From an uncultured Eubacteriales bacterium (GTDB lineage Bacteria; Bacillota; Clostridia; TANB77; CAG-508), in the NCBI GenBank assembly GCA_949288095.1, contig CASEIX010000024.1, positions 1-58,339 on the forward strand: a stretch of DNA of 58,339 bases, read 5' to 3'. The notes below the pieces were generated by a model. The model worked only from the letters and a program-made list of their open reading frames with translations, had not been told where the DNA came from and did not search any database. A program made the translations under genes and the position numbers. Each line of letters begins with the position of its first letter. The stretch's first letter is position 1. This document shows positions 5,421 to 55,460 of the stretch, piece after piece.

Positions 5421-7394
5421 ATGGGACAAAAGAAAAGTAAAAGCTTGTTAATAACAGTTATTGTTTTATTAATTATTATTCTACTTTTAGTAGGTGTTAT
5501 AGCATATTTATATTTTTTCACAGATATGTTTAAAAGTAATAAACAGTTATTCTTCAAATATACTTCACAGATTGTACAAAGTGAAAATGGATTTATAGAT
5601 AATCAGTTAATGCAATATTTCCAAAAAAAGAATAGTACAAGTTATGAAAATAATGGAGAAATAACATTTGATGTATCTATTCCCAATATGGAAGATGACT
5701 TAGAATTGGCGAATAATCTTAATATTACTTTCTCAGGAAAAGAAGATCCGAATAACTCAAAATCAGAAAAAGAAATTAGTTTGAACTATTCAGATAGTGT
5801 CAATTTTCCATTAACATATAGAAAAACCAATAATATAACAGGAATTCAAACACAATATATTGGAAGCAGTTTTGTAGCTGTTAGAAATGATGAAGAAATT
5901 TCAGGATTAGAAGATATCAATAATTTATTAAAATTACAAAATATAGAGTTTTCTAATGAAGAAATACAAAGTTTGAAAACAAGCTATTTTGATAATATAT
6001 TAAATACATTAGATGATAGTAAATTCTCTACACTAACAGAAGGAAATTTAACAGGATATAGATTAACATTAACAAGCGAAGAATTTAAAAATACATTGGT
6101 TCAAATCTTAAATGCTTTAAAAACAGATACCAATACAACACATAAATTAAATGAAATATTACAAGGTATAGGAATTGATACACAATTAAATGAAGATTCT
6201 ATAGATGATGTTATAGAAAGTATTAATGATTGGAAATTAAATGATAATGTTGAAATGACTGTATATGCTACAGGAGGAAATCTTACTAGAGTAGATGTAG
6301 AAAGTACAGGAACTACATTAGAAATGAATAAAGAAGGAAATGGACAAGATATCACATACACAATAACATTAAATTCTACAGAACAAGATATAAATGCTGT
6401 ATTTACAGCAAAATATGCTGGTTTAGCTTCTGATAGTGTAACGGAAACATATGAGCTAACATTAGAAGGAAAGTATGAAGAAACTAATGTGGTAGAAAAA
6501 TCAGACAATACACAATATACATTAGATATTTCAAGTGAGAGAGAAGCAATTGAGTCATTAATAACAACTGTTCAGGCAAATAAAATTGCAGTAGGAGAAG
6601 ATAGTACACAAATCAGTGATACAGATGTAGAAGAAGAATTATCATCAGGAGAAAATGAAATCTATGCAGATATGCGTTTAGAAAGAGAAACTGATACAAC
6701 ATTTCATATTACATTTGTTAGTACGGGAGATAGATTTGTCATAGATAATACAGGAGAAATTGTTGAAGAACCAGAAGAAACAACTACAAACGAAAATTCA
6801 AACAATACTTCAAATAGTAGTTCAAACAGTACTTCCGAAACAACCATCAGCCAAAATAAATATAGTGTAACAAATAATGCACAATTTAAAGATGGAGTGG
6901 AAATAGAAGACTTAACAGAAGAAAATGCTGTTATTCTAAATGATAAAAGTAATGAATATGTTAGTAATTTAATGAATGCGATACAAGAAAGAATGGTAGA
7001 AGTTAATCAAGTACAAATGGAAGAATTAGGTGTATCTGAAGATGAGAATCCAATTCAATATCTAATACCAGCATTTTTAGGGGCAAGTCAAACAAATGCG
7101 CAAATTGATGAACAAGCTGTAAATGCATTTAATGCAAAATTTGAATTATATCAAAGTACAAACACAAAGGGCGCAACAGTCAAAGGATTATTAACAACCA
7201 TTCAAAATAATAATGAAACAGAAGGAAATGATAAAATAGAAGAAATCAATATGGATGGGGAAGAATATGAAGTAAATGAGCAAAATATTACCTTATTAAA
7301 AAGTAGTATTAATGTAGATGATGCATACAGAGTAGAATTTGAAAAAGATATTAATACAGGACTCATTTATAGAGCAGTTATTAATAAACGTTAG
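5421..7394 (+). CDS. membrane-anchored hypothetical protein (657 aa)
   Basis: N-terminal TM helix (LLITVIVLLIIILLLVGVIAYLYFF) and a long polar extracytoplasmic region. The last two codons and the TAG stop lie inside the repeat element starting at 7389. Confidence 0.7.
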   Translation: MGQKKSKSLLITVIVLLIIILLLVGVIAYLYFFTDMFKSNKQLFFKYTSQIVQSENGFIDNQLMQYFQKKNSTSYENNGEITFDVSIPNMEDDLELANNLNITFSGKEDPNNSKSEKEISLNYSDSVNFPLTYRKTNNITGIQTQYIGSSFVAVRNDEEISGLEDINNLLKLQNIEFSNEEIQSLKTSYFDNILNTLDDSKFSTLTEGNLTGYRLTLTSEEFKNTLVQILNALKTDTNTTHKLNEILQGIGIDTQLNEDSIDDVIESINDWKLNDNVEMTVYATGGNLTRVDVESTGTTLEMNKEGNGQDITYTITLNSTEQDINAVFTAKYAGLASDSVTETYELTLEGKYEETNVVEKSDNTQYTLDISSEREAIESLITTVQANKIAVGEDSTQISDTDVEEELSSGENEIYADMRLERETDTTFHITFVSTGDRFVIDNTGEIVEEPEETTTNENSNNTSNSSSNSTSETTISQNKYSVTNNAQFKDGVEIEDLTEENAVILNDKSNEYVSNLMNAIQERMVEVNQVQMEELGVSEDENPIQYLIPAFLGASQTNAQIDEQAVNAFNAKFELYQSTNTKGATVKGLLTTIQNNNETEGNDKIEEINMDGEEYEVNEQNITLLKSSINVDDAYRVEFEKDINTGLIYRAVINKR

Positions 7395-7733
7395 GGATGT
7401 GCCAAAGAGGACGTGCCAAAATGGCACCAAAAGGGAGAGACCTTAGCATTATTCACCAAAGGGACCTGTGGTTATATAAAGTCACTCACAATTTTGTATA
7501 AGCTAAATTTTCATAGAATTCTAAAATAAAAAAATGTATTCATGCACTCAGACCCTCTCGTAAACGAGAGTACCGTGCAATTCATACATTTTTTTATTTA
7601 AGAATTTCTACATTCAAATTTAGATACGCAAAATCGATTCGTTTTTTTATATAACCACAGGTCCCTTTGGTGAATAATGCTAAGGTCTCTCCCTTTTGGT
7701 ACCATTTTGGAACGATTTGACACGTCCCTAACG
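7389..7733. repeat. 345-bp nested fold-back element, copy A (outer REP-like ends, 38-nt perfect middle arms, 165-nt imperfect hairpin core)
   Basis: The left end CGTTAGGGATGTGCC... is mirrored by ...CACGTCCCTAACG at the right. Arms 7443..7480 and 7646..7683 are perfectly complementary. The core is centred on CTCTCG-TAAA-CGAGAG. A second copy is at 55113..55460. Confidence 0.9.
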
Positions 7734-7823
7734 TTTCAGTCATAAATTCAATATATTAGAATATATATATTATTGAGGTAGAAGTAAAACAAATTCTAAA
7801 ATTATTGAAAAAAGGAGTGAAAA

Positions 7824-8693
7824 ATGGAAAAACTTTTAGAAATTGTCAAGTTTTTTCCAATGAATTTATCCAACATTTTATATAATACAATTATTTCCAA
7901 TAATAAAATAAAAGATGAATTGCAAGAAATCAGAATTAGAATTGATAGACCGCTAATTTTGAAGCTTAGAGATAAAGAATTAATTGTAGAATATAAAATT
8001 ACACAAAATGAAATATTACAAATTGTGGAGAGGTTATGTGAAAATTCTATTTATGCATATAAAAAGCAATTGTGTGAAGGATATATTACCATAAGAGGAG
8101 GACATAGAGTAGGAATAACAGGAACAGCAGTTGTAGAAAATGGAGAAATTATCAATATTAAATATATAACTAGTTTAAATTTTAGAATTGCTAGAGAAGT
8201 TCCAAATTGTAGTAATCGCATTATCGGACAAGTTATTGACATTAAAAATCAAACAATTTTTAATACATTAATTGTTTCACCACCGGGAAAAGGAAAAACG
8301 ACGATGTTAAGAGATTTAATTAGAAATTTAAGTAATGGGGTAAATGGGATAAATTTTAAAGGAAAAACTTGTGGAGTGGTTGATGAAAGAGGAGAAATTG
8401 CAGCAATGTATAGAGGCGTTCCACAAAATGATGTTGGAATTCGAACAGATATTATTGATAATGTGTCAAAGGCAAAAGGAATCAAGATATTAATTAGAAC
8501 TATGGCACCAGAGATTATTGCTTGTGATGAAATTGGAGGAAATGAAGATATACAAGCCATTGAAGAAGCAATGTTGTCTGGTGTAAAAGGCATATTTACG
8601 ATGCATGGAAAAAGTATAGAAGATGTACATAATAATCCATATATTAAAAAATTAATTGATAAAAAAATCATTGAGAAAATTATTTTTATATAG
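7824..8693 (+). CDS. spoIIIAA: stage III sporulation protein AA (ATPase)
   Basis: Walker A SPPGKGKTT and Walker B-like IIACDEIG. It is the first gene of an eight-gene cluster with the spoIIIA order. Confidence 0.85.
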   Translation: MEKLLEIVKFFPMNLSNILYNTIISNNKIKDELQEIRIRIDRPLILKLRDKELIVEYKITQNEILQIVERLCENSIYAYKKQLCEGYITIRGGHRVGITGTAVVENGEIINIKYITSLNFRIAREVPNCSNRIIGQVIDIKNQTIFNTLIVSPPGKGKTTMLRDLIRNLSNGVNGINFKGKTCGVVDERGEIAAMYRGVPQNDVGIRTDIIDNVSKAKGIKILIRTMAPEIIACDEIGGNEDIQAIEEAMLSGVKGIFTMHGKSIEDVHNNPYIKKLIDKKIIEKIIFI

Positions 8694-11911: not shown

Positions 11912-12516
11912 AAGGGTTGATCAATCCAGAAGATAGAAATAAAAACAACAAAAAGAAAATAGAAAATTTAGTATTTTTTGTTGTCATACTAATTGTCACA
12001 ATTGTCATCATAAATATCATATGGAATGGAGATAAAAATAGTAGTAATGAAAAGGAATTACAAAATAATACTTCAAAACAATTAGCCAATAGCAATACAT
12101 CTTCATTAGAAGCATCAAGTAATACCAGTAACCAGTTGGAAATAAAATTAGAAGAAATCTTAGCAAAAATCCAAGGAGTAGGAGAAGTAAATGTGTTCAT
12201 AAATTACTCAGAATCAAGTGAAATTGTACCAATGTATAATGAAAGTACGCAAACCAGCAATACAGAAGAAACAGACACATCAGGAGGAACAAGAACCATA
12301 GAAGAAACCGATTCACAAAAAGAAATCATATATGAAGAAAGTGATGGAGAAAAAACCGTCATTACACAGAAAGTAGTAGAACCACAAATAGAAGGAGCCA
12401 TTATTACAGCAAAAGGAGCAGGAAATGCAGAAGTAAAAACAAGCATCATCCAAGCAGTAGAAGCAGTAACAGGACTGCCAACACATAAAATACAAGTCTT
12501 TGAAATGGAACATTAG
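11893..12516 (+). CDS. spoIIIAG: stage III sporulation protein AG
   Basis: N-terminal TM helix and a C-terminal ring-building-like block VEPQIEGAIITAKGAGNAEVKTSIIQAVEAVTGLPTHKIQVF. It overlaps spoIIIAF by 19 nt. The last codons and TAG lie in the repeat at 12506. Confidence 0.75.
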   Translation: MFKDKLKGLINPEDRNKNNKKKIENLVFFVVILIVTIVIINIIWNGDKNSSNEKELQNNTSKQLANSNTSSLEASSNTSNQLEIKLEEILAKIQGVGEVNVFINYSESSEIVPMYNESTQTSNTEETDTSGGTRTIEETDSQKEIIYEESDGEKTVITQKVVEPQIEGAIITAKGAGNAEVKTSIIQAVEAVTGLPTHKIQVFEMEH

Positions 12517-12594
12517 GGACGTGCCAAATCGTTCCATTTTGAAACGATTTAACCTGTCCCCAATGTTTCAAAATGAAACAAAAGGGACAGACCT
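12506..12594 (+). repeat. REP-like palindromic unit, long form
   Basis: ATGGAACATTAGGGACGTGCCAAATCGTTCCATTTTGAAACGATTTAACCTGTCCCCAATGTTTCAAAATGAAACAAAAGGGACAGACCT. Same family as 27903, 29082, 32308 and 34987. Confidence 0.9.
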
Positions 12595-12626
12595 GAATGA
12601 AAAAACATTGAAAGGAAGGTAATTCT

Positions 12627-24293: not shown

Positions 24294-24309
24294 AATGAAC
24301 ATAATATAG

Positions 24310-24566
24310 AAAAACGATAGTCAGGACACGATAAATGGCATAATATCTTAAAGAGAGCCAAAGGTAGCTGAGAATTTGGTAAGTAAACTCTATTTATTAT
24401 CCCCTAACTGTTACTAAACTGAAATAAAAGTAAGTATAGTCGTAAATCTGCGTTAAAGATAAATGAGAGAACTAATTAAAAGAGAATTAATTAGTTAAAA
24501 TAGGTGGTACCGCGGAAAGTAAAGCTATTTCGTCCTAAGTTAGGATGTTAAATAGCTTTTTTTGTT
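24310..24566 (+). promoter_or_regulatory. T-box leader (tRNA-sensing riboswitch) with terminator
   Basis: AGAGAG and GCTGAGA stem I elements, and the conserved T-box AAAATAGGTGGTACCGCG at about 24497..24514. The terminator AAAGCTATTT...AAATAGCTTTTTTT spans 24521..24566. The 5' boundary is approximate. Confidence 0.8.
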
Positions 24567-24770: not shown

Positions 24771-27700
24771 ATGTACAAAAAAGTAGAATTGCAAAATGGT
24801 TTTGTCGGAATGGAAAATGATGTTGCCAAAATGTGGAAGGACAAAGACATCATAAAGAAAAGCCTTAACGGAAATCAAGGGAAAAGATATTTTACCTTTT
24901 ATGATGGACCTCCAACAGCAAATGGAAAACCACATGTAGGACATATTGAAACAAGAGTTATGAAAGACTTAATTCCAAGATACAAAGTCATGAAAGGATA
25001 CAGAGTTATCAGAAAAGCTGGATGGGATACACATGGATTACCAGTAGAACTAGAAATAGAGAAAAAACTAGGTATTTCAGGAAAACAACAAATAGAAGAA
25101 TATGGTGTAGAAAAATTTGTAAAACAATGTAAAGAAAGCGTTTTTGAATATGTTCATTTATGGGAAGAAATGACAAACAAAGTTGGATTCTGGGTAGATA
25201 TGGATGATCCATATGTAACTTATCATAATGAATATATTGAATCTGTATGGTGGGCATTAAAACAAATGTGGGAAAAAGGATTACTTTATGAAGGACATAA
25301 AGTAATGCCATATTGTCCAAGATGTGGAACAGCTTTATCATCACACGAAGTAGCACAAGGATACAAAGATGTAAAAGATTTAACATGTATTGCGAAATTT
25401 AAAGTAGTTGGAAAAGATAACACATATATCTTAGCATGGACAACAACTCCATGGACATTACCATCAAACTTAGCACTTTGTGTTAATAAATCATATGAAT
25501 ATGCTGAAGTAAAAGCCAATATTGGAACAGATGATGAACCAATATATGAAAACTATATTTTAGCAAAAGATTTATTAGAAACCGTATTAAAAGAAACACC
25601 ATATGATGTTGTAAAAACATTTAAAGGTGAAGAATTATTAGGTACAAAATATGAAAGATTAATACCATTTGGAGAAGTAGAAGGAAAAGCATTTGAAGTT
25701 ATTCATGGGGACTATGTTACATTAACAGATGGTACAGGTATTGTTCATATTGCACCTGCTTATGGTGAAGATGATAGTTATGTTGCAAAACAAAATGGTA
25801 TTACCTTTATTAATCTAGTAGACAAAGAAGGAAAATTTGTAAAAGAAGTAGAACCATGGGCTGGAAGATTTGTAAGAGATTGTAATGAGGATATTTGTAA
25901 ATGGTTAAAACAAGAAAATAAACTATTCAGCAAAGAAAAACATATGCACTCATATCCACATTGCTGGAGATGTGATACACCACTTTTATATTATCCAAAA
26001 GAAAGTTGGTTTGTTGCTATGAGTAAACTAAGAGATGAATTAGTTGAAAATAATAGCAAAGTAAACTGGTATCCAGAAACGATTAAAACAGGAAGATTTG
26101 GAAAATTCCTAGAAAATGTTATTGACTGGGGAATTTCAAGAGATAGATATTGGGGAACACCACTACCAATCTGGACTTGTGAAGATGAAAATTGTGGACA
26201 TCAAGAATGTATTGGTTCAATTGCAGAATTAAAAGAAAAAGGTATTGATGTACCAGATGATATAGAATTGCATAAACCATATATTGATAATGTATATTTG
26301 AAATGTCCAAAATGTGGCAAGAAAATGCATAGAGCAAAAGAAGTTATCGACTGTTGGTTTGACTCAGGTTCAATGCCTTTTGCACAATGGCATTATCCAT
26401 TTGAAAATAAAGAAATGTTTGACAACAATTTCCCTGCTGGATTTATTTCAGAGGCAGTTGATCAAACAAGAGGATGGTTCTATACATTAACAGCAATTGG
26501 AACCGCACTATTTAATAGAACACCATTTGAAAACTGTATCGTTTTAGGTCATGTCTTAGATGAAAAAGGACAAAAGATGTCTAAATCAAAAGGAAATGGT
26601 GTAGACCCAATGGAATTATTAAACACAGTTGGTGCAGATGCAACAAGATGGCATTTCTATACATGCAGTGCTCCATGGCTACCTACAAGATTAGGATTAG
26701 ATAATGTAAAAGAAACTCAAAGAGGATTTTTAAGCACATTATGGAATGTATATTCTTTCTATGTGTTATATGCAGAAATAGACCAATTCAATCCATTAAC
26801 ATATAAAGATTTCAAAGTAACAAATATTATGGATAAATGGATTATTTCAAAACTAAATACATTAATCAAAGATGTAGATAATAAATTAGATAGTTATGAT
26901 ATTACAGGAGCCGCATTAGAAATAGAAGAGTTTACAGACAGTTTATCAAACTGGTATGTCAGAAGAAACAGAGAAAGATTCTGGAGTCAAGAATTAACAG
27001 ATGACAAGATTGGAGCATATGTAACACTATATAAAGTATTAGTAGACTTATGCAAAGTATCAGCACCATTTGTACCATTCATGACAGAAGAAATTTATCA
27101 AAACCTAGTGGTTAGCTTAGACAAAACAGCACCTGAAAGTATCCATTTATGTTCATGGCCAGAAGTAGATGAAAATGTCATTGACAAAGACTTAGAAAAA
27201 GAAATGGACTTAGCATATAGAATTGTCAAACTAGGAAGAAGTGCAAGAAACTCTGTAAACATCAAAAACAGACAACCATTATCAGAAATGTTAATCTCAA
27301 TAGATACACTTCCAGAATATTATGCAGACATTGTAAAAGAAGAATTAAATGTCAAAGAAGTTGTATTAGGAGCAGAAATGTCTGAATATGTAAACTTCGA
27401 AATCAAACCAAATTTACCAGTCTTAGGAAAAGAATATGGTAAATTAATTCCTAGAATTAGAGAAGAAATTGCAAAGAAAAATCAAATGGACTTAGCAAAT
27501 ACAGTAAAAAATGGTGGAGTAGAATATATTGAAATCGATGACACACAAATTGGACTAAACGCAGAAAACTTACTAGTCACAATGCAAGGAAAAGAAGGAT
27601 TTGCATTTAGTGGAGAAGGAGAAATTGGTGTTGTATTAGACACAACTATCACACCAGAACTAGCAGAAGAAGGAGTCCTAAGAGAAGTCTTATCAAAAGT

Positions 27701-27914
27701 ACAAAACATGAGAAAAGACAGTGGATTTGAAGTATTAGACAGAATCAATCTATATGTAGCAGGAAATGAAAAAGTAGAAGCTGTTATCAAAAAATACGAA
27801 GAAACCATCAAACATGACACATTAGCAGACAACATCTTCTATAACAAAGAAGGAAGAGATTATACTGATACAAATATTAATGGAGAGAATTTAAAGATTG
27901 ATGTGGAACGTTAG
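24771..27914 (+). CDS. ileS: isoleucine--tRNA ligase (long, about 1,050-aa form)
   Basis: HIGH motif [17 protein letters not shown] motif KMSKSKGN, and the editing and Zn-finger regions. The last codons GTG GAA CGT TAG lie in the repeat at 27903. Confidence 0.97.
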
Positions 27915-27958
27915 GGACGTGTCAAATCGTTTCAAAATGGAACGAAAGGGACAGACCT
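27903..27958 (+). repeat. REP-like palindromic unit, short form
   Basis: GTGGAACGTTAGGGACGTGTCAAATCGTTTCAAAATGGAACGAAAGGGACAGACCT. Confidence 0.9.
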
Positions 27959-28163: not shown

Positions 28164-28919
28164 ATGTCTAGAATTGCGAGAAATCAAATGGAAACCACTT
28201 TTTTTCATAATATGACACAGGGAATAAACAAAGAATATATTTTTGAAGAAAATAGATGTAAAAAGAAATATATAGAACTATTACAAAAAGAAGTAAATGA
28301 ATTTAATATAAATTTGATTGCTTTTACTATCATGAATAACCATGCACATATATTATTGCATACAGAAAATATAAGTAACATGAGTAAATTTATGAAAACA
28401 ATTAATGAAAAATTTGCAATGTATTACAATTATATAAATAAAAGAGTAGGAATTGTTTTTAGAAATCGATATAAAAGCCAACCAATATTAAGTGAAAAGC
28501 AACTATTAAATTGTATCAGATATATTTTTAATAATCCTGTAAGAGCAAAAATTGTTTTAAATCCAGAAAAATATATTTATTCTAATTTTAAAGATTTTCA
28601 AGTTAGTCAAATATCAGAAATTTCGTTAGATAGAATTTATAAAAATATTAATAATTCGATTGATTTTCCAAATGTAAAAAATCAAAAAATAATAGCAGAA
28701 GCAGAATTTTTAGATACGTTTGAGGATACAGAAATATTTATTAAAGAATTAATAAAAAATTATGAAAAAGGAAAAGACTTAATGATAGGTAAAAATACAG
28801 AGGAAATGAAAAAGATTGTACAATATGTAAAAGAAAATACAAATATATCGCATAAGTTTTTGGCAGATATATTACATGTATCTAAAACAACAATTAGTCG
28901 ATATATAAAAGGTGAATGA
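28164..28919 (+). CDS. REP-associated tyrosine transposase (RAYT) / IS200-like Y1 HUH transposase with C-terminal HTH-like tail
   Basis: HUH motif NNHAHILLH, GIVFRNRYKSQPI block, catalytic Tyr block CIRYIFNNPVRAKIV and C-terminal LADILHVSKTTISRYIKGE. Confidence 0.8.
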   Translation: MSRIARNQMETTFFHNMTQGINKEYIFEENRCKKKYIELLQKEVNEFNINLIAFTIMNNHAHILLHTENISNMSKFMKTINEKFAMYYNYINKRVGIVFRNRYKSQPILSEKQLLNCIRYIFNNPVRAKIVLNPEKYIYSNFKDFQVSQISEISLDRIYKNINNSIDFPNVKNQKIIAEAEFLDTFEDTEIFIKELIKNYEKGKDLMIGKNTEEMKKIVQYVKENTNISHKFLADILHVSKTTISRYIKGE

Positions 28920-29081: not shown

Positions 29082-29136
29082 AGGTCTGTCCCTTTCGTTT
29101 CATTTTGAAACGATTTGGCACGTCCCTAACGTTCCA
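29082..29136 (-). repeat. REP-like palindromic unit, short form (inverted)
   Basis: AGGTCTGTCCCTTTCGTTTCATTTTGAAACGATTTGGCACGTCCCTAACGTTCCA. It ends directly against the SD AAGGAGG of the next gene. Confidence 0.9.
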
Positions 29137-32267: not shown

Positions 32268-32307
32268 TAGGAAAAACAAAAGCATTGAAATATTTCAAAT
32301 AATTATG

Positions 32308-32391
32308 AGGTCTGTCCCTTTCGTTTCATTTTGGAACATTGGGGACGGGTTAAATCGTTTCAAAACGGAACGATTTGGCACGTCCCCAATG
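32308..32391 (-). repeat. REP-like palindromic unit, long form, variant terminus CATTGGGGACG (no TAG)
   Basis: AGGTCTGTCCCTTTCGTTTCATTTTGGAACATTGGGGACGGGTTAAATCGTTTCAAAACGGAACGATTTGGCACGTCCCCAATG. Confidence 0.9.
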
Positions 32392-32485
32392 TAACACTGA
32401 AATAAAAATACAATACGTACGAAAATAATTCGTTTATACACAGTTGAAAATTTGATAAGATAAACAAAAAAATAAAGGTGGTAAT

Positions 32486-32812: not shown

Positions 32813-32994
32813 AAGATATTTAGAATGAGAGCAGAAACTCATTCTTTTTTTCTTATATTTTTTGTTTTATAAAGATTTGCCTATATTATATAGACTATTT
32901 CTATATAATTGTTTTTATAAACTGGTTTTGACACAAAGATAGTTTTATTATATACTGATATCGCAATAATATAAAAATAGAGGAGTTGTCATAT

Positions 32995-34998
32995 ATGAAA
33001 GAAAATGAGACATATGAACAATGTGTAATAAAGGAAAAAAATGAAGGACAATTTAGTAGAGAAAAATACTTAAAGTTATTAAGTAAAGAATTTAAAAATA
33101 CAACAGAAGTGGCAGAAGAAATTATTAATTTAAAGGCAATACTAAATTTACCAAAGGGAACAGAAGTATTTTTAAGTGATATTCATGGAGAATATGCACC
33201 ATTTACCCATATTTTAAATAATGAAGCAGGAATTATAAAAAGTAAAATTGAAGAAACATTCGAAAATCGAATTACAGAAAAAGAACGAAATACATTAGCA
33301 ACTTTGATATATTATCCAAAAGAAAAACTAAAATTCATTAAACAAGAAACAGAAAATCTAGAAGAATGGTATGCAATTACTTTATACAGATTAGTAGAAG
33401 TAGCAAGAAAAGTAAGTTCAAAATATACAAGATCAAAAGTTAGAAAAGCGATTCATAGTGGATTTGAATATATTATAGATGAATTACTACACTCACAAGT
33501 AGATAGTGAAAAAGATAAAGAAAATTATTACAAACAAATTATTAAGACAATTATTGAGCTAGAACAAGCAGATAGCTTTATCATAGCTATATCAGACTTA
33601 ATTAAACAAATGGCGATAGACCATTTACATGTAATAGGAGACATCTTTGATAGAGGAAGATATCCAGATTTAGTATTAGATAGACTAATGAGTTTTCATA
33701 GCTTAGACATTCAGTGGGGAAATCACGATATATTATGGATGGGAGCAGGATGTGGAAATAAAGCTAATATTGCAACTGTTGTTAGAATATGTGCAAGATA
33801 TAATAATATAGGAATATTGGAAGATTCTTATGGAATAAATATGAGGCCATTATCCACATTTGCACAAAAAATATATAAAAATGATGATTGTGCAAACTTT
33901 ATGCCAAAGGTATTTGATTTTAATAAATATGACAATAGTGATAGAAATAGTATAGCCAAAATACAAAAAGCAATAACGATTATTCAATTTAAAATTGAAG
34001 GACAATTAATCAAAAAACACCCAGAATATCATTTAGACAATCGATTATTACTAGACAAAATGAATATAGAAAAAGGAACCGTAACGATAGAGGGAAAAGA
34101 ATATGAATTAAATGACAAGAATTTTCCAACAATTGATAAAAATGATCCATATGCTTTAACTTCTGAAGAAAATGAAATCATGGAAAGACTTGCAGAATCT
34201 TTTGTGCATAGTCCTAGTCTACAAAAACATTTGAAATATTTATACACAAAAGGAGAAATATATACTATATTTAATAATAATCTTTTATTCCATGGTTGTA
34301 TTCCAGTAGATGAAAATGGAAATTTAAAAGAAGTAGAATTTATGGGAAAAAGATTAAAAGGAAAAGCCTATTTTGATGAAATCAATGAAGTGGTAAATAA
34401 AGTATTTGCAACAAGACAGCCAGAATTAGTAGATATCATGTGGTTTTTATGGATTTCACCAGAATCACCATTTTTCGGAAAAGAAAAAATGGCAACATTT
34501 GAAAGCTATTTTGTAAAAGATAAAACAATGAGCAAAGAATCCAAAAGTCCCTATTATCAATATTCTGAAAATGAAGAATTTTGTGTAAAAATATTAAGAG
34601 AATTTGGATTAGAAGGAGAAGATTCTCATATCTTAAATGGACATGTTCCAGTAAAAGCAAAAGATGGAGAAAGTCCAATAAAAGCAAATGGAAAACTATT
34701 AGTGATTGATGGCGGATTTGCAAAAAGCTTTAGAGAAAAAACAGGAAATGCAGGATATATCTTAACATATAACTCAAATGGATTATTATTAAGTCAAAAT
34801 AAACCATTTGAATCTGTAGAAAAAGCAATTGTAGAAGAAACAGATATTATCAGTGAAATCATTGTCAAGAAAACAGATGTTCTTAGAAAAAGAGTAGCAG
34901 ATACAGACATAGGAGCAAAACTAAAAGGAGAAATTGCAGACTTACAAGAATTAATGAAAGCATATAAAAATGGAGAAATAAAAGAAGTGGAACGTTAG
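32995..34998 (+). CDS. fbp: fructose-1,6-bisphosphatase, class 3
   Basis: IINLKAILNLPKGTEVFLSDIHGEY, HVIGDIFDRG, WGNHD and GHVPV metallophosphoesterase motifs, and a length of about 665 aa. I prefer the ATG at 32995 over the track TTG at 32986. The last codons GTG GAA CGT TAG lie in the repeat at 34987. Confidence 0.9.
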   Translation: MKENETYEQCVIKEKNEGQFSREKYLKLLSKEFKNTTEVAEEIINLKAILNLPKGTEVFLSDIHGEYAPFTHILNNEAGIIKSKIEETFENRITEKERNTLATLIYYPKEKLKFIKQETENLEEWYAITLYRLVEVARKVSSKYTRSKVRKAIHSGFEYIIDELLHSQVDSEKDKENYYKQIIKTIIELEQADSFIIAISDLIKQMAIDHLHVIGDIFDRGRYPDLVLDRLMSFHSLDIQWGNHDILWMGAGCGNKANIATVVRICARYNNIGILEDSYGINMRPLSTFAQKIYKNDDCANFMPKVFDFNKYDNSDRNSIAKIQKAITIIQFKIEGQLIKKHPEYHLDNRLLLDKMNIEKGTVTIEGKEYELNDKNFPTIDKNDPYALTSEENEIMERLAESFVHSPSLQKHLKYLYTKGEIYTIFNNNLLFHGCIPVDENGNLKEVEFMGKRLKGKAYFDEINEVVNKVFATRQPELVDIMWFLWISPESPFFGKEKMATFESYFVKDKTMSKESKSPYYQYSENEEFCVKILREFGLEGEDSHILNGHVPVKAKDGESPIKANGKLLVIDGGFAKSFREKTGNAGYILTYNSNGLLLSQNKPFESVEKAIVEETDIISEIIVKKTDVLRKRVADTDIGAKLKGEIADLQELMKAYKNGEIKEVER

Positions 34999-35076
34999 GG
35001 ACGTGCCAAATCGTTCCGTTTTGAAACGATTTAACCCGTCCCCAATGTTCCCAAATGAAACAAAAGGGACAGACCT
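34987..35076 (+). repeat. REP-like palindromic unit, long form
   Basis: GTGGAACGTTAGGGACGTGCCAAATCGTTCCGTTTTGAAACGATTTAACCCGTCCCCAATGTTCCCAAATGAAACAAAAGGGACAGACCT. Confidence 0.9.
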
Positions 35077-41331: not shown

Positions 41332-41419
41332 GCAGATGTGGCGGAACTGGTAGACGCACAGGACTTAAAATCCTGCGGTTGAATAAACCGTGCCGGTTCG
41401 ATTCCGGCCATCTGCACCA
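41332..41419 (+). tRNA. tRNA-Leu (anticodon UAA), type II with long variable arm, encoded CCA
   Basis: Acceptor GCAGATG pairs with CATCTGC. The anticodon stem CAGGA/TCCTG carries the loop CT-TAA-AA. The T arm is CCGGTTCGATTCCGG, followed by a discriminator A and CCA. Confidence 0.9.
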
Positions 41420-54642: not shown

Positions 54643-55113
54643 ATGAGTAGAGTAAAAACATTATTGATGTATGCCTTATGGATTGTACTGTTTATTATAT
54701 TTTCTGAGTTTCTAATTAATGTTGGTTTGAATTCAACTTATAAGCCAATAGAAAGAAGAGATAATGTGTCACAAGTCAATGTATATCAAGCAGAGGCAAC
54801 ACTTGTCAATGGAAGAATAAGGGGATTAATAACTAATTCAGAAACAAATAATATAAGTAATAAATATTTAGAATTTGATTTTTATTCTGAAAGAGATGTA
54901 TTTTTAGGGAAAAAAATCATTGATATTAATGAATTAGAAGCTAATGAAATACAAAACTTTGAGATTTTATTTAAATTGGAAGATGTGGACTATTATACAG
55001 TTAGTGTATTAGATGAAAGACCTGAAGGTGAGGAAATAGAAATTCTTCCTGAAGGTTGGACAACTGCAGAAATAATAGTAGCAACTGCCTTTACATTGCT
55101 AATTTTCTGGTAG
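54643..55113 (+). CDS. membrane protein, unknown function (TM helix at each end)
   Basis: N-terminal TM helix LLMYALWIVLFIIFSEFLI and C-terminal TM helix IIVATAFTLLIFW. The stop TAG abuts the fold-back element. Confidence 0.6.
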   Translation: MSRVKTLLMYALWIVLFIIFSEFLINVGLNSTYKPIERRDNVSQVNVYQAEATLVNGRIRGLITNSETNNISNKYLEFDFYSERDVFLGKKIIDINELEANEIQNFEILFKLEDVDYYTVSVLDERPEGEEIEILPEGWTTAEIIVATAFTLLIFW

Positions 55114-55460
55114 TGGAACGTTAGGGACGTGTCAAATCGTTTCAAAATGGGTCAAAAGGGACAGACCTTAACCTGCCCACCAAGGAAACTTGTGTTTATA
55201 TAAAGTCATTCACAATTTTGTATAAGCTAAATTTTCATAGAATTCTAAAAGAAAAAGATGTATTCATGCACTCAGACCCTCTCGTAACGAGAGTACCGTG
55301 CAATTCGTACATCTTTTTCTTTAAGAATCTCTATATTCAAATTTAGATACGCAAAATTGATTCATTCTTTTATATAAACACAAGTTCCCTTGGTGGGCAG
55401 GTTAAGGTCTGTCCCTTTTGACCCATTTTGAAACGATTTGATACGTCCCTAACGTTCCAC
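55113..55460. repeat. ~348-bp nested fold-back element, copy B
   Basis: Same layered architecture and nearly identical core as 7389..7733, with a different but internally complementary middle layer. It fills the whole gap between two convergent genes. Confidence 0.9.

Follow-up and report, generated by a model that had tools for sequence, protein, structure and literature searches.

What are the two long fold-backs on a contig of an uncultured Eubacteriales bacterium, and what has kept their arms complementary? We addressed this question on contig CASEIX010000024.1, whose whole length of 58,339 nt is referred to here as the window, and on related loci, which were compared as 8-kb pieces of metagenome-assembled genomes (MAGs) and carry L-numbers as labels. 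Copy A (7387-7735) and copy B (55113-55460) are both fold-backs of ~350 bp, and were found by sequence where a sequence-only reading of the window had placed them. We consider it probable, at roughly 60%, that they are DNA-level, non-coding palindromes of ~340-350 bp which depend on a Y1 transposase, are handled as hairpins of single-stranded DNA (ssDNA), and also supply a terminator. Each copy is built of three nested layers, an outer unit that resembles a terminal inverted repeat (TIR) or a repetitive extragenic palindrome (REP), a middle layer, and a core, as given below.

7387..7442, plus strand: copy A, left outer unit of TIR/REP-like kind, irregular and exceeding the right unit by ~4 nt
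7443..7480, plus strand: copy A, left arm of the middle layer, free in sequence, complementarity kept
7481..7645, plus strand: copy A, core, whose conserved arms run to ~7533 on the left and from ~7598 on the right
7540-7583: copy A, centre of the core, a type-1 hairpin between an A-tract and a T-tract
7646..7683, minus strand: copy A, right arm of the middle layer (metagenome copy L010, otherwise identical, lacks bases 7661-7674)
7684..7735, minus strand: copy A, right outer unit, with its end ~25 nt short of the conserved TAGAATATATATAT motif that precedes spoIIIAA
55113..55167, plus strand: copy B, left outer unit, starting directly behind the TAG stop of open reading frame (ORF) 54643-55113
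55168..55204, plus strand: copy B, left arm of the middle layer
55205..55368, plus strand: copy B, core, with a type-1 centre
55369..55405, minus strand: copy B, right arm of the middle layer
55406..55460, minus strand: copy B, right outer unit, giving the NFACT gene (minus strand) its TAG stop at 55449-55451

Two composite palindromes share their ends with a transposase locus

The arms of copy A (7412-7480 and 7646-7714) are complementary at 97% over 69 nt with 165 nt between them, and the inverted-repeat analysis recovered the perfect 38-nt pair (7443-7480 and 7646-7683) that had been read from the letters alone, as well as an inner inverted repeat at 7517-7539 and 7584-7606. Folded as ssDNA, copy A reaches -119 kcal/mol against -29 ± 4 kcal/mol in shuffles (z = -20.5). 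Copy B has 128-nt arms with 86% complementarity. All the differences that the sequence-only reading had given between the two copies were found and are mirrored from arm to arm, namely GAGAGACC versus GACAGACC, about ten positions of the middle layer, and two pairs in the core; the single exception to the mirroring, A versus G, was confirmed and belongs to copy B. Its statement that the element encodes no protein also holds, in that the small ORFs which exist are conserved neither between A and B nor between the types of centre.

A search with a profile of the core matched the window at copies A and B only, and the inventory of the window comprises these two composites, three short forms of the unit, and a pair of units around a transposase gene. 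The outer unit is ~52 nt long (GGAACGTTAGGGACGTGTCAAATCGTTTCAAAATGGnnCAAAAGGGACAGACC), and its 15-mer AACGTTAGGGACGTG, allowing up to 3 mismatches, has 11 matches in the window against 0.22 expected. Units lie inverted on both sides of the Y1_Tnp ORF 28164-28919. The suggested link of the fold-backs to a REP-associated tyrosine transposase (RAYT) is thus borne out, as the outer unit of A and B flanks the transposase gene both here and in relatives. The parts of this locus are the following.

27903..27958, plus strand: outer unit left of the transposase gene, giving a 1047-aa ORF, which ends at 27914, its TAG stop
28164..28919, plus strand: Y1 (HUH) transposase of RAYT/TIRYT type, 251 aa long and ending in a C-terminal helix-turn-helix (HTH), the presumed mobilising enzyme
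29082..29136, minus strand: outer unit right of the transposase gene, inverted

The product of ORF 28164-28919 matches Pfam Y1_Tnp and carries a C-terminal HTH_11 domain at residues 216-249, and the HUH (NHAHIL) and Y---NP (YIFNNP) motifs read in its translation are invariant in 38 homologues. The NCBIfam model REP_Tyr_transpos scored 62.2 bits, under its cut-off of 80 but far above the 19.8 bits of the IS200 model. When a profile of the transposase was compared with the PDB, the best match was E. coli TnpAREP (4ER8, E = 2.5e-4); a search of the PDB with the single sequence gave no match, 4ER8 being reached by the profile only. In relatives whose proteins are 93% and 77% identical, the gene lies, as in the window, between a PF00133 tRNA synthetase gene and an ABC-transporter gene, and the inverted outer units surround it in both. 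The synthetase gene of the window (the 1047-aa ORF 24771-27914) is presumably ileS. The syntenic position of the gene, which we take to be single-copy, its better score with the REP-type model than with IS200, and the inverted flanking units together amount to the behaviour of a RAYT. The close homologues of the transposase are mostly on contigs of only 1-3 kb, as would be expected if assembly tends to break off in the repeats on either side of the gene.

Judged by its HTH tail and by the GGGAC-type repeats, the enzyme may belong to the TIRYT / subclass 2.1 / Group 1 branch. The unit motifs GGGACAGA and GGGGACGG/GGGACGTG are near, not exact, matches to the TIRYT motif GGGG[AT][CG]A[CG]. The unit was also considered as a classical REP, that is, a stem-loop of 20-40 bp with a GTAG or CGTC tag, and this was set aside because a unit of A or B, taken singly, lacks a stable stem-loop; the term "TIR repeat" fits these units better than "REP". 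Of the two units that flank the transposase gene, the right-hand one folds clearly better than shuffles (z = -5.4) and the left-hand one only marginally so (z = -1.8).

Units of the repeat start at a stop codon or inside one. The GTTAG of the unit supplies the TAG stop of five ORFs of the window, which end at 7394, 12516, 27914, 34998, and 55449 (minus strand), the GTTAG positions being 7390-7394, 12512-12516, 27910-27914, 34994-34998, and 55449-55453 (minus strand); the left unit of copy A, for instance, ends ORF 5421-7394. The stop of a sixth ORF (55113) precedes a unit by one base. Of 22 copies, nearly all begin at a distance of 0-20 nt from a stop codon, and many of them lie between convergent genes. 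Two of these stops involve short forms of the unit, which are three in number.

12506..12597, plus strand: short form, consisting of module a, an inverted variant module a2', and then module b
32298..32393, minus strand: short form built like 12506..12597, in the opposite orientation
34986..35075, plus strand: short form built like 12506..12597, giving the TAG stop of ORF 32986-34998

The orthologous sites in L026 (180-232, 16181-16224, and 18804-18857) have plain a-b units where the window has the a-a2'-b forms. The inverted variant module a2' (GGAACATTGGGGACGGGTTAAATCGTTTC) is inserted at one common internal point, and the identical variant is present at all three sites of the window; it is therefore not a local fold-back copy.

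Mirrored changes in the arms and turnover at orthologous sites

Scanning genomes with a 20-mer of the core centre and metagenomes with a 22-mer of the right arm yielded 23 related loci from MAGs of Clostridia/Bacillota and from metagenomes; the hit in L003 (Acidimicrobiaceae), where only the 20-mer matches, was discarded as chance. The full three-layer build recurs in L009, in L004, and in L098, the last at the site orthologous to B, so that it is present at four different sites (A, B, L009, and L004) in at least three genomes. We used the five copies of this one build (A, B, L009, L004, and L098), with 137 pairs, to examine arm compensation. Over the five copies 98.7% of the cells are paired, and both partners have changed in 21 of the 137 pairs. 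Shuffles give 6.6 ± 1.9 such pairs, and none of 500 shuffles reached 21; with the partner slid out of register only 0-2 both-sided changes remain. In the shell helix 18 pairs are changed on both sides and one on a single side. The compensation is Watson-Crick in kind: transversion swaps, for instance from C:G to G:C, are among the changes, and G·U steps are nearly absent. The sequence-only reading had proposed that the fold-back itself is what is preserved and that further copies should covary. Covariation was indeed obtained, and the proposal stands for the outer and middle layers, in which changes are mirrored down to a mirrored 1-nt indel between orthologues; the core behaves differently, being kept in sequence and not just in structure. 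Compensatory changes across the hairpin have been described as common in REPINs (Bertels and Rainey, 2011; PMC3116915), and arm compensation therefore marks the family and is not new.

At the site of copy A, close relatives differ in the way that the sequence-only reading had thought worth comparing, in that they hold the element, a single unit, none, or a scar. L010, with an identical SpoIIIAA, has the element with a 14-nt deletion; L010:1783-2260 and window positions 7340-7830 are 100% identical over 490 nt except for this one-sided deletion (7661-7674), which is uncompensated and is due either to polymorphism between strains or to the assembly. In L038 (96%) a single unit occupies the same junction, and an ordinary terminator hairpin comes after it. 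In L040 (93%) there is no unit; the gene ends in CGTTAA and is followed by the terminator seen in L038. L042 (90%) carries GTTAGGGCCAGAC at L042:2335-2360, which resembles a unit deleted between its two GGGAC motifs and may be a scar of excision or recombination. The terminator of L038 and L040 is missing from the window, where the element has taken its place immediately before the conserved TAGAATATATATAT motif upstream of spoIIIAA. The element-free relative reads CGTTAA at this site and the window CGTTAGGGATG; from these letters, the insertion would have gone into a TAA stop, behind its TA.

At the site of copy B, a core-bearing element follows directly after TGGTA in all four relatives (NFACT 92-95% identical), with these contents.

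L098: build as in copy B
L100: a shell like that of unit 1 around a reversed core with a type-2 centre
L101: a unit-2 shell around a reversed core, also with a type-2 centre
L103: a unit-3 shell, with part of the left arm deleted

Units of five different types thus have their start directly behind TGGTA here. The site is persistent and its content turns over.

Copy B and L098 form an orthologous pair in which the rates of the three layers can be read against the flanking gene, the fourfold sites of NFACT being 86.6% identical. The middle layer has four mirrored differences in 38 pairs, including the mirrored 1-nt indel, and a fifth change repairs the lone mismatch of B. In the outer units, two changes are one-sided and one is mirrored. 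The core has 1 difference, located in the loop of the centre, in ~175 nt, where ~23 would be expected at the neutral rate. That this conservation is not automatic follows from the dead, centre-less copies at the orthologous site of L016 and L009, which differ by ~9% between flanks that are 94% identical. As a lead, the mirrored changes have arisen at about the neutral rate, as expected of unbiased copying from arm to arm, and pure compensatory selection should be slower.

The core, its shells, and the competing explanations

Across 18 full copies, the arms of the core are 86-88% identical between copies and only 62% complementary within a copy, the core centre is 53% identical between copies, and the shells are 32-38% identical between copies and 74% complementary within a copy (90-92% in the A/B build). 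The shell is therefore constrained in structure and the core arms in sequence. The core is 187-190 nt long in 22 of the 29 copies listed (including 16 of the 18 full-length ones), the other forms being centre-less (85-93 nt), partial or short-centred (146-169 nt), or longer (two, of 230 and 239 nt). At its centre there are at least two sequence types, always in the order A-tract, hairpin, T-tract, and the base of the centre stem covaries (GATGTA/TACATC, GTGAG/CTCAC, CGTGAG/CTCACG, CTGTG/CACAG). The centre folds on both strands with -12 to -52 kcal/mol, and the full-length type-1 and type-2 centres with -20 to -37 kcal/mol. The type-2 hairpin (for example in L025:1175-1351, L021, L020, L015, and L100) has a conserved 5x5 internal loop, CCKCU opposite CAUYC, within surrounding stems that vary. 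The 43-nt centre of L001:3228-3406 is inverted with respect to that of every other copy, and agrees in 42 of 43 positions with the L007 centre once the latter is reverse-complemented; L007:5554-5773 has NN plus a duplicated centre at that spot in the assembly, and both orientations may be present in the population.

Could the fold-back be preserved as RNA? The very stable predicted fold with its covariation would suit a structured non-coding RNA, and in many copies read-through from upstream would transcribe the element. However, almost no G·U intermediates accompany the transversion swaps, and among the one-sided mismatches those of G·T type and of A·C type are about equal, without strand bias. 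In tandem contexts the orientation of the core is sense versus antisense to the upstream gene at roughly 7 to 3, a small sample with no clear bias, and it is reversed in the relatives L100 and L101 at orthologous site B. A sigma-70 promoter scan found nothing inside the element, no convincing sporulation-sigma motif was seen by eye in the arms, and the terminator-like centre would halve any transcript. At the gathering threshold, Rfam matched only a T-box and a tRNA in the whole window, both outside the element; at an E-value threshold, copy A and a type-2 copy matched only generic miRNA-hairpin models on both strands, far below threshold. No Rfam family thus accommodates the element, and the RNA that the sequence-only reading had offered as one option is, in our judgement, very improbable. 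The T-box is an ordinary leader at 24308-24540, upstream of the 1047-aa ORF 24771-27914, and the tRNA gene lies at 41332-41416.

The layers are also separable. The outer unit is found alone, for example in L026 and L038, and makes up the three short forms of the window, which are hairpins; L016 has a simple doublet (unit, 12 nt, inverted unit) at the site orthologous to the full copy L009:3482-3823. The core, at ~87% identity, sits inside at least five other, unrelated palindromic shells in other Clostridia MAGs and metagenomes; some of these consist of other units of the GGGGACG type, "unit 2" (GGGAATTTGGGGACGGACTCATTTTTCCC) and "unit 3" (ATGTCCnnTTGGGGACGTTTCTGTTTGGGACAT), at times nested, and some are without such a unit. 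Hairpins of unit 3 lie symmetrically outside hairpins of unit 2, giving four nested layers, in L019, L020, L022, L023, L001, and L004:2665-2925, the last with a strongly diverged short core within its unit-3/unit-2 shell. L005:2741-2829 is a lone half of the window-type shell (middle arm and outer unit) adjoining the right end of a unit-2 element. The sequence-only reading had named, as evidence against a single preserved fold-back, layers that are each found alone elsewhere; this is so in part, for the outer unit alone or as a doublet and for the core in other shells.

Such modularity is what one would expect if the layers were nested insertions, with the core an independent miniature element that has ~60-nt imperfect terminal repeats and its own enzyme and inserts into palindrome tips (central ATAT/TA), the transposase-linked doublet being merely its host. 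One core at 86-88% identity in at least five unrelated shells, some lacking a GGGACG unit, agrees with this, as do a junction that always reads ...ATAT|AAA..core..TTT|ATAT..., centre-less short forms that resemble deletion derivatives (L011, L016, L004:7115-7197, L009:665-737), unit 3 lying outside unit 2 in four loci (L019, L020, L022, and L023), and the 12-nt-spacer doublet of L016 where L009 has a full element. The conservation of the core and the variety of its shells likewise fit an independently mobile or selected module better than a passive spacer. Yet the L016 doublet and the L009 shell differ at ~12 mirrored positions and are not a clean filled/empty pair, and a recent insertion is at odds with 1 difference in ~175 nt between orthologous cores whose flanks have diverged by 13% at neutral sites. 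No empty shell, that is, a palindrome with an intact ATAT tip and no core, occurs in 330 kb of related loci, which is too little DNA to weigh as a negative. A parent element with a transposase was absent from the metagenome, plasmid, phage, and viral collections, among which there was no IS library: copy A had no BLAST match in PLSDB plasmids or INPHARED phages, a right-arm 19-mer had 0 matches in viral contigs, and a left-arm 18-mer had 54 there, of which 51 are in one phage gene family and none is similar beyond the seed, and these were set aside as chance. The flanks of the transposase gene itself were considered as a source of the core and showed no similarity to it. Of the marks of a DDE-type miniature inverted-repeat transposable element (MITE), inverted repeats are present, but a TA/ATAT duplication is indistinguishable from the palindrome; a target duplication cannot be demonstrated because the AT-rich junction is itself palindromic. 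We regard nested insertion as the main rival, unlikely though plausible, and it does not exclude the transposase-dependent reading of the doublet.

A further explanation would dispense with a transposase today, the element being a palindromic terminator or insulator that the host maintains, with arms kept alike by template switching during replication and with units that are relics. This would account for the location behind stop codons and between convergent genes, the A-tract/hairpin/T-tract centre, the presence of an element at site B in all relatives examined, the near-neutral rate of mirrored change, which unbiased arm-to-arm conversion predicts, and the inverted centre of L001, as recombination between inverted repeats would yield. 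Conversion alone, however, should equalise the arms of the core as well, yet these are 62% complementary in all 18 copies. Moreover, the build is found at four sites that are not orthologous, and close relatives lack it at site A; it has therefore been spreading. The units have also been conserved better than the middle layer, and the transposase gene that accompanies them is intact and syntenic. We consider host maintenance alone improbable.

We therefore return to the hairpin element served by the Y1 enzyme. Since its outer unit is the unit that flanks the RAYT/TIRYT-type gene, the element is a REPIN-like doublet with a 240-nt spacer. In the outer layer, the Y1 enzyme would recognise and cut the units on ssDNA, and the doublet with all that lies between would be copied or moved as a hairpin. 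The middle layer, a stem of 37-38 bp, drifts in sequence at an approximately neutral rate with its Watson-Crick complementarity held; this would be either because only copies that fold can be processed or because template switching or repair copies the mismatches of one arm of the extruded hairpin onto the other. Handling as an ssDNA hairpin would explain why the compensation is Watson-Crick. The core is a module of ~190 bp with sequence-conserved, imperfectly paired arms and a variable hairpin centre, and this centre may be a bidirectional intrinsic terminator, which would explain the location behind stop codons, the persistence of the elements, and the replacement of the relatives' terminator by copy A. 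What the sequences themselves show is the anatomy, the units in common, the syntenic transposase gene, the mirroring of changes, the modularity, and the locations; mobilisation by the enzyme, the ssDNA intermediate, and terminator activity are predictions from the letters of these loci.

Several observations weigh against this explanation. The score of the transposase with the NCBIfam model for REP-associated transposases falls below the cut-off (62 < 80). Taken singly, and unlike classical REPs, the units of A and B are no more stable when folded than shuffled sequence (z = -0.4 and 0.1). The core is better conserved than the transposase-linked units and is found with other unit types or with none. 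The one-sided deletion in L010 is indicative that symmetry is not restored at once, and the differing shells, centre types, and core orientations at site B need turnover or conversion beyond what the model holds. The argument from the neutral rate comes from one orthologous pair with 4-5 events. A simple consensus scan for terminators did not call the centre, whose stems are AT-rich beside the T-tract and have internal loops.

Relation to known systems and meaning of the elements

A literal search of the literature with the sequences gave two matches, both of one 12-mer and in papers on unrelated subjects. The closest likeness is to REPINs and their RAYT (PMC3116915), which also have two inverted copies of a repeat flanking a single-copy, vertically inherited Y1 transposase gene, a doublet and spacer predicted to form one hairpin (-119 kcal/mol in copy A), compensatory changes across that hairpin, and dispersed extragenic copies. 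The differences are of size and content: A and B are ~350 bp long as against ~70-110 bp, outside the REPIN range, their spacer is 240 nt, with a core that is the best conserved part and is common to other repeat families, where that of REPINs is short and poorly conserved (the doublet of L016 does have a short one, of 12 nt), their single units form no clear stem-loops, and their host is of an uncultured Clostridia lineage and not a proteobacterium. REPINs form populations of tens to hundreds of copies per genome, with excision intermediates; the 58-kb window has its two composites, the three short forms, and the pair around the gene.

On the side of the enzyme, the nearest description is that of TIRYTs, TIRtrons, and TIR repeats (Di Nocera, 2013; PMC3733652), TIRYT having been equated with TnpAREP-like subclass 2.1 (Quentin, 2018; PMC6006769) and with RAYT Group 1 (Bertels, 2017; PMC5581495). 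Group 1 RAYTs have been reported from Clostridia, and their associated flanking 16-mers are only modestly frequent (PMC5581495). The locus resembles TIRYTs in its RAYT-like enzyme with a C-terminal HTH, in a gene flanked by long inverted repeats and not by classical REPs, in a GGGGWSAS-like motif in the repeats (here GGGACAGA and GGGGACG), and in repeat families that are moderately abundant and organised as dimers; it differs in that no TIR-repeat dimer with a large conserved core is described in PMC3733652, PMC6006769, or PMC5581495. The best-supported reading is that A and B are a larger, modular relative of REPINs, a REPIN/TIR-repeat doublet with long cargo.

More distant systems share single aspects. 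In the E. coli bacterial interspersed mosaic element BIME-1, or RIP (RIB), inverted REPs surround a central motif that binds IHF. Like it, the A/B family has inverted, transposase-linked repeats at the 3' ends of genes, enclosing a conserved centre which would be read by a factor other than the transposase, but this centre is ~190 bp, palindromic, and terminator-like, with no sequence relation; we know of no protein that binds it. The Correia elements of Neisseria and the enterobacterial ERIC sequences are palindromic MITEs that act on transcripts. They are likewise dispersed imperfect palindromes (100-200 bp) with long terminal repeats, AT/TA junctions, and both long and internally deleted short forms, and terminator or processing functions have been proposed for them; in contrast, the A/B family has a link to a Y1 enzyme with no parent DDE transposase found in the collections searched, and its core is always within a further palindrome.

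The attC sites of integrons are bounded by GTTRRRY and RYYYAAC boxes and are used as folded ssDNA. The conserved imperfect stem of the core with fixed unpaired positions and a variable terminal structure recalls them, as does the unit end AACGTTAGGG / CCCTAACGTT, which resembles the two boxes. The A/B arms, however, are conserved over 55 nt as against 7 nt. An integron reading was rejected, with no integrase gene or cassette array present and with flanking genes that are housekeeping. Conceivably, although we hold it doubtful, the ~190-bp core is by analogy a self-standing folded-DNA module that follows the logic of attC sites and IS200/IS605 ends, is recognised by a protein, and moves between the tips of transposase-linked palindromes across Clostridia. 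If so, the layered elements would be Russian dolls made by the targeting of hairpin tips on ssDNA, and would distribute ready-made bidirectional terminators.

To our knowledge, what is understood of RAYT/REPIN systems comes almost entirely from Proteobacteria. The repeats so far described for the TIRYT/Group 1 branch, whose enzymes bear an HTH, are modestly abundant and little characterised (PMC3733652, PMC6006769, PMC5581495), and the present locus would give this branch a clear repeat population in uncultured, spore-forming Clostridia. For annotation, the elements explain the TAG stops and a few extra C-terminal residues of several housekeeping genes, and would also account for the contig breaks around the transposase gene in metagenome assemblies. 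The three nested layers are under three different constraints, the units being kept by sequence, the stem by complementarity with approximately neutral change, and the core by sequence across unrelated shells. The features that stand out most are the sequence-conserved arms of the core and the turnover of content at fixed sites. One and the same molecule thus offers a test of how REPINs keep or restore their symmetry, whether through selection for hairpins that can be processed or through copying between the arms, and of whether hosts retain such elements for the terminators they carry.

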